A stretch of 64,000 nucleotides of DNA, taken from assembly GCA_036172245.1 (NCBI GenBank), contig JAYWIR010000032.1, positions 372,001-436,000 of the forward strand, read 5' to 3'. The position numbers and the translations under genes were made by a program. The stretch comes from Raillietiella orientalis. Lineage: Eukaryota. Positions 11,957 through 51,227 of this stretch are shown here, piece after piece. Position 1 is the first letter of the stretch. Every line of letters starts with the position of its first letter. The notes below the pieces were generated by a model. That model was given only the letters and a program-made list of their open reading frames with translations. It was not told the DNA's origin and searched no databases.

Positions 11957-12479
11957 CAAGAAGATAAGGATGAAAAGACATGTGCTCAGGAGCCGAGACA
12001 CCGCCCCCGGACATCTCGCTGCGCGCCTGCTTCAGGAAGCAGCAGAAGAATAAAAAGTGAGCGTTTCCAACTTCCAGAAGAGAAAGCTTGGAGGAAGCTT
12101 GAATTTTCAGGAAGACGGCACGAAGCAGCACGTGGTTTCCCAGCCCTTCCTCTCCCTCCTTTCCTCCTCCTTCCCTGTTCTCCCTCCACCTTCCTCTTCC
12201 TCCTTCCCTCTTCCTTTTCCTTTCGTGGGTCGCCCTTAGACGAATTCCCTGGACATCCCTCTCGCGATGTTCGAAACTCCGATGTTCGCGGCGAGCGAAA
12301 GAGCGTCGCCCGCCGGAGCTCGAGGATGGGTGTGCAAACACGTGCGCGAAACCGCACGGTGCAGAAGTCGTGAAAGCAAAAGGGGATCCATCCATCACTC
12401 GCAAGGACAGTAATGTGGCAGCAATGAAGAAAGGCATTGGGTTACACCAAGAACTGATGACCTCATAAAACGGAGGAAA

Positions 12480-15480: not shown

Positions 15481-16849
15481 CAGGCCTGGACGTACCGCTA
15501 CATCCTGAAAAGGATTGAGGCTGTCCCCCAGGCACACACATTCCCAACGCCCAGTCCCCCGTAATACAGACCCAAGTGTAATGAGGTGAAAATCATAGTG
15601 AAGAACAGTAAATCTGTGCCAATCTTCGAAGGAATGCGTTTTTGTCGTGCGAATGAGGAAAATAAATCTACTCACCCCTTTGGGGATCGGGAAAATCGAT
15701 GTATTTATTCCACGTAATGTCCTCACTTGCATTGCCATAAACAAACTTGGTCACTTTCCATCCGATGTGACTGAAGAGCAGCATCGACGCTGCTAGATGA
15801 AAAAGATTAGCCTTAAAGGATTCCCGATTCCTCATCTCGCTTCATGATTTCTTCATCCAAATCGTCCCAGCAGGACTCGGAAGAAAACGATTCCCAGATC
15901 GAATTTGCTCGATGCTTTAAATGTGGCTCTCAAAACACCTTGGAACTGTGCCGCTCGAAAGTAGTTCTGTGATTGTATTTGCTCGGCATCGTAGGGAAAC
16001 TCCCGGTTAGGGTCCTTCCGGTCTGGTAGTTCCCTTCATTTGGCTCACTTTGGCGCTACAGTTAATCAAGTTCCCGCCAAATTATGCGTTCTGCGATCCT
16101 CATTAAAGTACAAAGGCGAGATGGTACAATGTACAAAGTGATGGGACGCAAATGCTGGACACTGGCTCTTGTATTTGTGATGTTTCTCAAGCGCCCTGCT
16201 CTGAAGCCGCTGGGAGCCACTGTTTTTTCATCATTCATGAGTTCCGGAATATGCTGATCACGTGAATCCTCTTTCGTGAAATCAAACGTTCAAACCTTTC
16301 AAAAATTCGGCTTAACGATATCCTGGAAAAGAATGAAATGCCGAAGTCGATAAAGTTTCATCTCTCCTGATTGAAACCCTATTAAAATGAAAAGTCTATT
16401 TATTTACAGGTAAAGTAAACAAAAATGAGGTTGATCATTTCAAATCTAGCTTTCATCTTTCACTTATGAAACCTCAAGAGTTCAATCTCTAGAATTGTCT
16501 TCTTGAGGAGCATTTCAGAGGATGCCAACATTGCGCCACTTCATCGGATTCCGGTTTCATCCCCCGAAATGCCGAAGAGTCCCGCTTTCCCCTGTGGACT
16601 CCGGTTGTTGATATCAAAGTGTCGAAGCCAGTGGCATGCGCGCAAGAAGATGTGAAACCTAAGAGCGCTTTCAGCGGATACCCAGCAGCCAACTTTCCGA
16701 GGATGCGAACCCCATGGAAAGATGCAGTCAACTCTCCACCTTTCAAGGATTTCATGCCACTACAGTCAGAACCACGATTTGTATTGAAAAAAATTAAAAA
16801 AAAGAAAAGAAGAGCAGTAGAACTTGCCAGCAATTGCCAGTTCGTGCTG

Positions 16850-21989: not shown

Positions 21990-22530
21990 ATCGACTCTCA
22001 CAGAAGGCCTTAGGATAGCATTTCATACTTTAGATATCCTTCTATACACTCCTCTTGGCACAGCTCCTCTTGTATACCTCCTGAGGCACGGTTTGGAGAG
22101 GAAGTTGTACCAGCACGGCTTGGAAACCTTCCAGTAAAGACTCTGCAGCAGATTCGTGTACGTTTATCTGACCTGTTCTCTAGCCCAATCCCAAGAGACC
22201 ACGGCCGTCAATTTTGCCAACATCCTATCCATCCGCTAAGGATTGTTTCTATGGCACCTCTGTGGAAGGCGTCACCACCGTTTCTTGTGTCCTCATCCTT
22301 CTAGTATCCCCCCGTGAGAACTTCTAATCGGCTCTTTCTAAAAACATTCCATGATGGGATATAACGACAGAACTCACGAACCCAACCCCGGAAGCAAGGT
22401 GGTCTTTCGTCACGACGGGGTTTCCTTCCTTCGCTCCTTCTGGCTTTTCATTGGCCACTGCCTCAGGGTCTCAGCAGAGGATGGTGGAATTTAGAGCTTC
22501 CTAGGTAATTAGTGGACGTTTACCGGTCAA
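21990..22530 (+). pseudogene. IR/iGluR-like pseudogene fragment (S1, M1, pore)
   Basis: Remnants in the expected order: AD...LTCS...TTAVNF, PLWKASPPF, FLRSFWLFIGHCL, SFLGN*WTF. Confidence 0.5.
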
Positions 22531-27739: not shown

Positions 27740-28380
27740 GAAATCACAGCGCCTGTCTTCAGTCCGCCTCCGTTCAAGAAGCGTCTCAGCAAGTCCAAAT
27801 TGCTGTCCTGCGGTTGTTGGAGCGCCAAAGCGAATCCCCGCCACATGTCCTCCAGGGCAGTGCAGTCCAATAGGAGGTGCGGGAGCGCTTGCATCGCCCC
27901 GCGCCTGGAACAGTTCGGGAAGGCGCTTCCTCTCGTTCAGTGATGCCGGCGCATTGCACGGGAGACCCCAGTGCAGTACCAGCAGCGCGGATTGCTGCCA
28001 CTTGAGAGGAAGCAGCTCTCCGTCTATAAACACGGGGGGCATTTCCAACTCTTCAGGCCCAACTAATGTTCCAGTCCTTTGAAGACGGTTCTTGCTGTTG
28101 CTGCGTCAGCCAGCTCACGCGGTGTCCAACCACCGATAGGCTTCCTGCGGGCCGAGATCTCGCAGGAAACCTCCCACTTCGCCGGTAGGCAGGTGCCATG
28201 TACCTCGACAGCGGAGGACACCGTTGCGGCAAAGGGGATGGCTGCTGAGTAGACCAACATGGTCAGCTCACTACCCACCGCCTCCAGTGTTCTTCCGCTG
28301 TTCTTCTGAAACTCTCGGCAGCGGGTAACTTCCGGTGGGGCGCGGGTGAGTTGGGCACACGTCCTCACTTTCTCCTGCCG
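27740..28380 (-). mobile_element. L1/Tx1-like ORF2 C-terminal fragment
   Basis: LKWQQSALLVLHWGLPC...PHLLLDCTALEDMW. Homolog of 330-1140. Confidence 0.6.
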
Positions 28381-28596
28381 CCAGACCGGAGTATTTGCAG
28401 GGAAGCAGCGAGTCCACGGGTTTGTCACTGTTCTCACCAGAGCAGCGACACACCGGAAAGGGAAGCTGCAGGATGGGAGCCGGCGGTGGTGGCACGAAAA
28501 CAGGGTTGCGAGTCCTTCGCTACCGACCGCCAGCCGGGAGAGCAAAATCAATAATCTGTTTAGTAGCAGTTTTGCTAATGGAGATTTTATATGATC

Positions 28597-28692
28597 AACC
28601 CGAGGTTTTAAAGCAATAAACCTATCATACGAAGGTAGTTTGGGAAAGTCGGACTTATTTCGCAACTTTAAGTAACATATGTAAAATGACTT
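28597..28692 (-). mobile_element. Bacterial IS982-family transposase fragment, endosymbiont-like
   Basis: Hand-translated KSFYICYLKLRNKSDFPKLPSYDRFIALKPRV matches my recollection of the IS982 N-terminal motif FK.FY..YL....EFP.LPSY.RF..LKPRV in Wolbachia/Rickettsiales. Lies in an AT-rich island at ~28544-28745. Confidence 0.7.
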
Positions 28693-29059
28693 ATCAACAA
28701 CACGTGTTTGCTCATTACATAATTGTAAATGATTCAGGTTACAAAGGCGCACCAATGGGTGGCCCAGTTCTGTGCCACGAAGGCCAGTCTTCGAAGGTTC
28801 AACTAAACTTCCATGTGCTCCAACGTCAGGAGTCCAAGTCCGCCGTCGCGACAAGGAGCACACAAGTCTTTTAACAGGACTCGGGACCTCCCATTGCCTC
28901 AGAGGGTTTTTCGAAGGAGGTCTTTCATCCGTTTTACCACACCGGGGGAGCGGGGCACACGAAAAGCAGAGGTCGGAGGACGGGGGCCACAAAAGTGTTC
29001 CAAATGAGGGGCGCTGTGATCGCAATGAGATCCGCGCCATGGTCACAGTCCGGGGTGAC

Positions 29060-29425
29060 AGTCCATGAGTTGGATAAGCTTTCGCATAGAAAATAGGTCA
29101 CGAGCATGGCAGCCGCCTTGATGAGGAGATGGCTGCAAGGCTGTCTCATCTACCAGGAAAGGTCAGCGAGATAGCCACCATACACAGACGCTTCTAGAAA
29201 GGAATGAACCCTGTCCCTGTCCTACGATCCTGTCTTTTTTCTTATTTATTTATTGTACCCTCTTCTTGATCCCTACTTCGTTAGAAGCCGGTCTGCGTGC
29301 TGGTGCTCATCCCCAATGAACTTCGCTTCGAGGAGGAGAGGGCGGAGCATCTCTTGTATTCGATGAACGCTGCTGTTCTGGCTTCTGCTTTACTTTTTAA
29401 ATAAAGGTCCCAGCGTGACCAGGTC
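29060..29425 (+). mobile_element. L1/Tx1-like 3' end with terminal AATAAA and hairpin
   Basis: agcatggcagccgccttgatgagg and tagaagccggtctgcgtgctggtg are inverted homologs of 47660-47880 and 51350-51570. aataaaggtcccagcgtgaccagg at 29400-29423. Confidence 0.65.
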
Positions 29426-49170: not shown

Positions 49171-51227
49171 AAGAACCATTAATGATAGATAATACTCAAT
49201 GATGAAAGGGCAGCTTTGCCTATTTTTAGAATTACAATCAAATGAAGTGGGTGGAGATAAGTTTCGCCTTGAGAACCCTGCCAAAACCTTTTCGCGCGAA
49301 CTCTTCGGCAGTCCTCTCCATTGCTTCGCGAAGGTGCGGCCAGAGGCGCCACTTTTCCCATCATGTCGGGAACGAAGCGGGTGGCCCACCTGGTGGCGTC
49401 GACGGGTTCTCTGCGCTTCCGCCGTGTGGCGGCTGCCGCGCAGACGTAGCGAGGGATCGCCAGCCAACCGGCTGACGGCGCGGAGCAGCAGCTCAGCGAG
49501 GACGCCGGTGCTCGACCAGGTGCTCGAGAGCAGCACCCGGCTCCTGGTTCCAGAGAAAGGACGTGGTCGTTTCCGTTTTCCCCGCTTCTCCTGCGGAGCA
49601 TCCCGGCGTCCAGCTCCAGCGACGCTGGCTCGCAAGAGAAGAAGCCTCAGCCCAGCAGCAGAGCCTCTCCGAACGCCCTGGGAAGGGCTGCGATGCCATC
49701 CACGGGGCGCCCTCCCACGCGGTCCTGTCTGCGTGGGAGACGGCGAGGCGTGGCAGCATCTATCAAAACACACGCAGGAGCTCAGGTGTTTTGTCTGCGC
49801 TTGCGGGGTTGCAGACTCACTCCGAGGCCGAGCGAGGAAGAAAGGCCGCGAAACGTAGCTGCTGTCTGAGATAGACGCCGGAGGGTCCTGTCCGCGTGGT
49901 GAAGCACCACAGATCACCACAGTAGTCCACAGATAGGACCTCCGTGTTCAACCGTTCGGCCGAGTCTGACATTCTCAGAATTATTTTCTTTCCGAAATTG
50001 TTTTGCAGCGTGCAGTGTGCATCTTTTTTAAAAAAAAAAAATTTGATATAAATATGCATTATGTAATGTAAATATATTTAACCACTTGACCATGAAAGAA
50101 GCCCAAGGAATCACGGAAAGAATGAAAAGGGTACAAGCAGAGAACATGGCGGAAATCCCCTCTTCTCTGCTGCCTGCATCCCTTCTCCACCTCTTTACCC
50201 TTCTCCACCTCTCCACCCCTTCACCTTCACCTAGTTCTCTTTGCGACGGGAGGAGGGCTTCAGAGGAAGCTACGGCGCCCCCCGGGCATGCAGAACTCCC
50301 AGAACAATGGCGATAGCGGCAGTCAGACCATCGCCCTCAATGAACGAGCGAGGAGGCCGACCAGGAAGTTCGTGGCAAGCAGTCGCTACCGGGGATGGTG
50401 ATGACATCACTGACCCCCAGCGCGAAACACAAATTCATAATAACATCTCGAAGGGAGAACGGAGAAATGCTTTAATTCATGGATACCATAAACTAAAGAA
50501 CACAATTAGCCCCCAGCACACCTGGGTCGCAATCAATTGGCTCAGTACAGTTACGTCACATGGTATGAACTGGTGGCTGTTTTTTTTTCGTTGCTATCTT
50601 GAAAAGAACGATATTAAATATTTACTATAAATACTCAAAATTCATTAGAGAACAGTGAAACGCGGGGAAAAAAGTGTAATTACACCCTGAAACTCGTTTA
50701 CGAACGAAATCAGCAGCCGAATTTTACCGCTAGGTTTCTGAGATTCATCGAACTTGGCTAGACAGTTTAGCATGGAGGCCTCATCTGTGGACCTGCACTC
50801 TTCGTATTGATATTGATTTCCATTTCAATGGATGGGTGGGTGGCTTCCTTTGATACAGAGAAGAAAACGAGCGGGAATGCCCAATTCACCGTGCTATGAA
50901 TTGAAAACCAAGAGGTCCCCATTGGCGTGATCGTCTTGCAGTCGGCAGTCTTTGGGCTGCAAGAAATCCTGCTCGCTGTAGTTCCGCTGAAGATCCCTTT
51001 CATGGTGATCCCGTCCGCTCGGTCAGGAGGACAACCCGGAAGGCTTGCTCTCCTCCGCGCGAAGAAGTCTCAAAACGTTGGCTGAACGGCTTCAGCTGCA
51101 ATTCTAACGCGGATCACCAACATGAAGCCACTACAGTGAAGCATGATCTCGCCTCAAGAGATGAGATGAGGAAGAGACCCTCCTCATCTCACAGGCTCCG
51201 GGGAAAGGTCATCTCCTTCAGGTTGGT

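Follow-up and report, generated by a model that had tools for sequence, protein, structure and literature searches.

Three unlinked Wolbachia gene scraps form an AT-rich island in repeat-bearing DNA of Raillietiella orientalis, a probable nuclear Wolbachia transfer

Introduction

Where does a short and abruptly AT-rich stretch in the midst of GC-richer DNA come from, and by what route did it arrive there? This question is raised by a locus near the middle of the 64 kb stretch of DNA analysed here (referred to in what follows as the window), in which an earlier note had described an abrupt AT-rich island of about 200 bp at 28544-28745. As set out below, we consider it very probable that this island is a nuclear Wolbachia transfer (nuwt), in which a break within a copy of a host repeat was sealed using shredded symbiont DNA as filler.

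Limits and composition of the AT-rich island

Tool-defined limits of 28546-28742 place the borders of the island no more than 3 nt from those given before. The 197 nt so enclosed have a GC content of 0.32, as compared with 0.60 and 0.54 in the adjoining 500 nt on the left and on the right, respectively, and with 0.526 in the window as a whole, and equally AT-rich 197-nt windows make up 0.09% of all such windows in the stretch.

Positions 28500-28800 were compared with five whole Wolbachia genomes, and positions 28530-28760 with 60 genomes of the genus. These searches revealed that the island is composed of three Wolbachia scraps from unlinked loci, which derive from carB, from an IS982 transposase gene and from a ChpT-like gene, and which we call pieces A, B and C. 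Matches to the island at E ≤ 0.001 were found in 26 of the 60 Wolbachia-genus genomes, with the pieces 86-94% identical to the references, and the best DNA E values per genome were 2.7e-26 for piece B, 6.1e-18 for piece A and 1.1e-15 for piece C. A negative control, 16223-16533, returned only chance matches of 19-23 nt, in four of the 60 Wolbachia genomes; low-complexity DNA aside, no other part of the window outside the island is equally AT-rich, the GC content of the control falling to a minimum of 0.315. When the island was compared with plasmids, blastn returned only chance matches of 20-40 nt (E ≥ 2), and tblastn returned weak IS982 matches (E ≥ 0.01), which agreed on the family without identifying close relatives.

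An IS982 transposase gene fragment of Wolbachia type

Piece B (28597-28693, minus strand) is a 97-nt part of an IS982 transposase gene of the Wolbachia type and covers codons 61-92 of the 290-aa transposase P0002, with no stop or frameshift. The minus strand of 28692-28597 translates without a stop into KSFYICYLKLRNKSDFPKLPSYDRFIALKPRV, and the peptide without disablements that the earlier note had read from these positions is the exact 32-residue translation, with 0 stops. The note had also assigned this peptide to the N-terminal part of IS982 transposases of the type found in Wolbachia or Rickettsiales, an assignment that database searches now confirm. In a search of 5.77 billion proteins, restricted to longer proteins, the best match was P0002, a Wolbachia IS982 family transposase (E 2.3e-8), and all nine of the matches at E ≤ 1 carry IS982-type DDE domains. 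BLASTP aligned the fragment to residues 50-92 of P0002 with 30 of 43 residues identical, and to P0003 with 27 of 32 residues identical (84% over 32 aa). At the DNA level, the homology consists of a single ungapped block of 97 nt, of which 83 are identical to the loci L016, L019 and L029-L032. A significant match to a bacterial IS982 gene, the outcome on which the note had staked its reading, was thus found both in protein (E 2.3e-8) and in DNA (about 3e-26 per genome). For the IS982 transposase, 18 loci were fetched from genomes that represent their species; 15 of these loci are titled Wolbachia, and the remaining three belong to a Midichloriaceae MAG, a Rickettsiales MAG and Prevotella.

How much of a transposase does this fragment represent? 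In NCBIfam, the sole match of the peptide was to NF033520 (transpos_IS982), at profile positions 20-53 of 243, with a score of 14.5 bits (E 0.02) that falls short of the family cut-off of 130 bits, whereas full-length P0002 scores 260 bits. The DDE domain (PF13612 or PF01609) is absent from piece B, with no Pfam family found in the frames tested; in P0002 this domain occupies residues 107-259, and piece B (residues 61-92) lies N-terminal to it. Piece B begins and ends within the transposase gene. Since the piece lacks the catalytic DDE domain as well as both IS ends, no transposition took place at this site. Piece B is a scrap derived from an insertion sequence and is not itself an insertion sequence.

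A related case was noted among the proteins examined. P0007, a 382-aa protein of the spider Trichonephila inaurata madagascariensis that is recorded as an NAD(P)-dependent oxidoreductase, contains the C-terminal two thirds of the same Wolbachia-type IS982 transposase, and looks like a gene model spanning a Wolbachia insert or contaminant.

Scraps of carB and of a ChpT-like gene

Piece A (28546-28599, minus strand) is an internal 54-nt scrap of Wolbachia carB, the gene for the large subunit of carbamoyl-phosphate synthase, and was recognised by its DNA match: 51 of its 54 nt are identical to the loci L021 and L033, and 50 of 54 to L035 and L025. The ORF at 219-3026 of L021 scores 1534 bits on the carB model NF003671. 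The sense strand of the piece is the minus strand of the window, on which it encodes VDHIKSPLAKLLLNRLLI, the Wolbachia counterpart being VDHIKSQLAKLLPNRLLI. Its similarity to Wolbachia breaks off abruptly at 28545/28546.

Piece C (28691-28742, minus strand) is 52 nt in length and consists of 27 nt of upstream DNA together with the first eight codons of a Wolbachia gene for a ChpT-like histidine phosphotransferase. It is identical to L036 at 48 of 52 nt and to L027 at 47 of 52, and its first eight codons read MSKHVLLI in the window as against MNKNVLLI in Wolbachia. The corresponding ORF of L027 (886-1530, minus strand, 214 aa) falls short of the cut-offs of the ChpT models NF046018 (49 bits) and NF046025 (47 bits), and exceeds that of the Pfam family HPTransfase (34.3 bits against 22.9).

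The identity of piece C bears on a reading of the plus strand, where HYIIVNDSGYKG lies within the stop-to-stop ORF 28620-28874. This peptide had been likened to motifs of insertion sequences, a likeness that does not hold up: HYIIVNDSGYKG is the antisense of piece C, that is, of the 5' end of the ChpT-like gene, and there is no NCBIfam transposase match in its frame. The sole NCBIfam match of that frame, to cspD (E 0.0064), was taken as chance. It had further been suggested that the island might have been patched together, in scrambled order, from parts of insertion sequences, with IS motifs on either strand. A scrambled patchwork it is, and piece B is indeed IS982; however, piece B is the only IS-derived part, piece A being carB and piece C the start of a ChpT-like gene, so that a patchwork made up entirely of insertion sequences is barely credible.

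Arrangement of the pieces and the joints between them

Pieces A and C are separated by 138-687 kb in complete Wolbachia genomes (at 368592 and 655083, respectively, in G015, at 1090081 and 951698 in G034, and at 273765 and 960515 in G044), and none of the 60 Wolbachia genomes has any two of the three pieces side by side. Moreover, carB and the ChpT-like gene are present in the reference genomes as intact ORFs at distant loci. These observations bear upon the idea that the mosaic already existed in the donor, as a decayed and rearranged region of Wolbachia pseudogenes that was moved in one piece of at least 197 nt. Wolbachia genomes do contain several IS982 matches each, including the truncated copies L013, L014 and L017, and the true donor genome lies outside the 60 that were searched. 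Nevertheless, a pre-existing mosaic of this kind is very unlikely given that no two pieces are adjacent in any of those 60 genomes, that carB and the ChpT-like gene are intact and far apart in the references, and that a 54-nt internal scrap of carB joined in this way is without parallel in the loci examined.

The internal joints can be placed to the nucleotide. In extended ungapped alignments, identity falls to background within 1-2 nt past each of the six ends of the pieces, at 28546 and 28599 (A), 28597 and 28693 (B), and 28691 and 28742 (C). Where the carB piece meets the IS982 piece, at 28597-28599, the two have the 3-nt microhomology AAC in common, and where the IS982 piece meets the ChpT-like piece, at 28691-28693, they have the 3-nt microhomology TTA in common, both as defined by the same alignments. 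When 200,000 joints were simulated at random between the Wolbachia loci that had been fetched, an overlap of at least 3 nt arose by chance with a frequency of 0.065 per joint, or about 0.004 for both, figures that are thin in that they concern two internal joints. At the borders of the island we found no direct repeat, target duplication, inverted repeat or IS end. Together with the position of piece B inside its gene, the lack of IS ends and of a target duplication excludes transposition of IS982 as the origin of the island, and the structure fits end joining. Features expected of filler DNA are likewise present: three non-adjacent donor fragments are joined head to tail, with microhomology at the internal joints and without a target duplication.

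All three pieces are oriented with their gene sense on the minus strand of the window, raising the possibility of an RNA-mediated route, in which a host reverse transcriptase would have copied Wolbachia transcripts while jumping between templates at short homologies, and the chimeric cDNA would then have been caught at a break. Short overlaps of 3 nt are typical of template jumps as well, and they are found here at both internal joints. However, three pieces share an orientation by chance one time in four, and the 27 nt of piece C that precede the start codon are not necessarily part of a transcript. Furthermore, there is no poly(A) or LINE 3' end beside the island and no target duplication, and comparison with the island-free copy of the flanks described below (X1 record 4, a diverged paralogue) suggests that nothing but the island was added. 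The presence of bacterial mRNA at a nuclear reverse transcriptase would be an additional assumption. On balance, we regard the RNA-mediated route as unlikely.

Host flanks and the surrounding window

The left host flank (28063-28545, GC 0.60) is non-coding and belongs to a diverged dispersed repeat, with 28092-28291 being 69% identical to 921-1120. The right host flank (28743-29314, GC 0.54) is also non-coding and carries diverged repeat copies, with 29030-29314 being 68% identical to 47937-47659. Copies of the flanks elsewhere in the window are 68-79% identical. No Pfam or NCBIfam family was found in the left flank besides the IS982 fragment. The flanks are thus non-coding, repeat-bearing and non-bacterial, and the claim that the island is embedded in repeat DNA is borne out.

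The same picture extends across the window, in which the island lies more than 28 kb from either end, within non-bacterial DNA. Across the 64 kb, the 124 stop-to-stop ORFs of at least 130 aa, many of which overlap one another on both strands, yielded no Pfam family at E ≤ 0.01, one sub-threshold match to DUF5559 (11989-12441, minus strand) aside, and no Rfam family was found within the window. On this evidence, the window consists of gene-free, moderately GC-rich DNA with only old dispersed repeats. When the whole window was compared with the five Wolbachia genomes, nothing comparable to the island was found beyond it, the additional matches being a decayed scrap of tkt and a low-complexity chance match.

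The first of these, at 22097-22250 on the minus strand, is a decayed Wolbachia-like scrap from the interior of the transketolase gene (tkt). Nine Wolbachia genomes match it with 69% identity over about 155-164 nt, and others with 76-79% over 72 nt; in protein, it has 49% identity to the tkt ORF of L037 (pairwise E 6e-11), although it is not recognised by Pfam. This scrap would seem to have been transferred earlier than the island. The second, a match of 50022-50079 to the genome G001 (E 0.0025), was rejected as a low-complexity A/T run; its source is the A/T-rich low-complexity stretch 49960-50168, which includes a T6A12T3 run. In addition, a host-like stretch of 27 nt at 22008-22034 has 93% matches in four contigs of a single Wolbachia-genus genome, G019, which may reflect contamination of that assembly with host repeats, or chance.

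Contigs of a public sequencing run

We compared positions 28200-29100 with the Logan contigs of one public run (X1). Record 6 differs from 28914-29064 at one of 151 positions, which indicates that the run derives from the same or a very close organism. Records 1-4 are diverged copies of the left flank. Record 4 matches 28514-28546, continues with about nine other letters and then matches 28746-28766 at 19 of 21 positions, so that the island is absent from it. With 2 of 33 and 2 of 21 positions different (about 92-94% identity) and 30 letters of continuation, this record represents a diverged paralogue and not an allele. This diverged paralogue joins the two flanks without the island, which suggests that the flanks belong together and that the island is an insertion.

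Record 5 differs from 28633-28693 at three of 61 positions (95% identical) and continues as IS982 past 28693. With this 95% identity it is closer to piece B than the 60 reference genomes are, none of which exceeds 86%. The X1 sample therefore contains a fuller copy of IS982, whether in a living Wolbachia or in a larger insert.

These data also bear on whether the island might be a chimera of the assembly or a contamination, with Wolbachia reads misjoined into a host contig. No X1 contig passes over 28546 or 28742, in a run that covers only 9% of the sampled words, at a depth of 2-3. In addition, the X1 copy of IS982 that is 95% identical to piece B may point to free Wolbachia, or to a larger insert, in a related sample. 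However, a contaminating read would be expected to be colinear with a Wolbachia genome, whereas the island is made up of three unlinked scraps of 52-97 nt that carry private substitutions. On either side, non-bacterial DNA extends for more than 28 kb, and 3-nt overlaps between pieces of 50 nt are not a product of mis-assembly. Taken together, these points make a chimeric or contaminated assembly very unlikely.

Coding status and divergence of the island

A stop-free frame of 344 codons (28063-29097, minus strand) runs through the island, in which the IS982 piece continues in frame into the carB piece (…ALKPRVDHIKSPLAKLLLNRLLI). We considered this frame as a candidate gene and rejected it: Pfam and NCBIfam recognised no family in it besides the IS982 scrap, and we judged it to be a by-product of the GC-rich flanks together with a chance in-frame joint. 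Pfam found no family either in the in-frame translations of the island or in the 344-aa open frame. The island encodes nothing functional and is a dead relic.

Positions at which the island differs from every reference number 3 of 54 in piece A (as against four references), 4 of 97 in piece B and 4 of 52 in piece C, or about 5% overall. As the donor strain itself is not among the 60 references, this divergence sets a maximum. Within pieces A and C, the private changes are for the most part non-synonymous, with Q>P and P>L affecting carB, and N>S and N>H affecting the ChpT-like gene. The pattern would fit neutral drift after transfer.

Proposed origin of the island

We return, then, to the reading of the island as a nuclear Wolbachia transfer. 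The DNA is of Wolbachia origin and, in the assembly alone, is continuous with non-bacterial DNA on both sides. Its pieces are not adjacent in Wolbachia, its borders are sharp, its internal joints are marked by 3-nt overlaps, a target duplication is lacking, and the flanks have a paralogous copy without the island. The earlier note had proposed a transfer from endosymbiont to host, possibly captured as filler during the repair of a break, and the structure fits that proposal, with three unlinked scraps, 3-nt joints and a paralogous copy of the flanks in which the island is absent.

A plausible course of events would run as follows. Intracellular Wolbachia DNA would have been broken into pieces of about 50-100 nt, and three unlinked ones (from carB, from IS982 and from the start of the ChpT-like gene) would have been joined at microhomologies of 3 nt. 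End joining, whether non-homologous (NHEJ) or microhomology-mediated, would then have sealed a double-strand break in a copy of the host repeat, using these pieces as filler, and the island would have become fixed in the germ line, after which it would have drifted by about 5%. The break and the fixation in the germ line are steps that we infer, as is the repair pathway, from structure only.

If this reading is correct, the lineage from which the window derives carried, or still carries, Wolbachia with IS982 elements. The island would also provide a case, resolved to the base at its internal joints, of how symbiont DNA can enter a host genome, namely in the form of tiny shards linked through overlaps of 3 nt, much as in complex organelle insertions. 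Leakage of DNA from symbiont to host is already well known, and the island is a small and unusually clean example of it.

A broader idea is that the island is one product of a regular process acting across the host genome, in which Wolbachia shards of about 50-100 nt are stitched at microhomologies into host repeats, perhaps after being copied from transcripts by the reverse transcriptases of LINEs, or are gathered in DNA resembling piRNA clusters. Copying from transcripts would explain why all three pieces lie in gene sense, and this common orientation is the sole feature of the island that may speak for such a process, which we hold to be improbable. Were it to operate, regular shard capture, templated by RNA or linked to small-RNA loci, would constitute a new route or role for symbiont-to-host transfer, and antisense transcripts of symbiont genes could arise in piRNA-cluster-like DNA.

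Comparison with known systems

Among known elements, piece B is most directly comparable to the IS982 elements of Wolbachia (NF033520; P0002-P0006), with which it shares 70-84% identity in protein and up to 86% in DNA across codons 61-92. It differs from them in representing 32 of 290 codons, and in having neither the DDE domain nor the inverted repeats and target duplication.

As a whole, the island, read as a nuclear Wolbachia transfer, resembles the nuwts of arthropods and nematodes, in that it is non-functional Wolbachia DNA within the nuclear DNA of a host. Such transfers have been documented in Brugia malayi (PMC3849323), as Wolbachia fossils in Dictyocaulus viviparus (PMC4046930) and in surveys of filarial NUWTs (bioRxiv 10.1101/2025.03.17.643741). 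The island differs from these nuwts in the very small size of its pieces (52-97 nt) and in the direct joining of all three through overlaps of 3 nt. The portions consulted of these three sources (PMC3849323, PMC4046930 and bioRxiv 10.1101/2025.03.17.643741) do not discuss microhomology at junctions or mosaics of pieces below 100 nt. Judging by titles and the openings of abstracts, we found no paper on the subject of Wolbachia shards joined at microhomologies.

The structure of the island finds a further counterpart in insertions of organelle DNA, and the repair of breaks by numts has reportedly been described for primates. Mosaic organelle insertions bearing signatures of end joining are reported for plants (PMC6215612), and the integration of numts is linked to non-homologous end joining in a review (PMC3798261). 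Like complex numts and nupts, the island consists of non-adjacent donor fragments that show short microhomologies, lack a target duplication and would have served as end-joined filler when a break was sealed. It differs from them in that the donor is a facultative bacterial endosymbiont and not an organelle, and in that the repair pathway proposed for the island is deduced from structure only.
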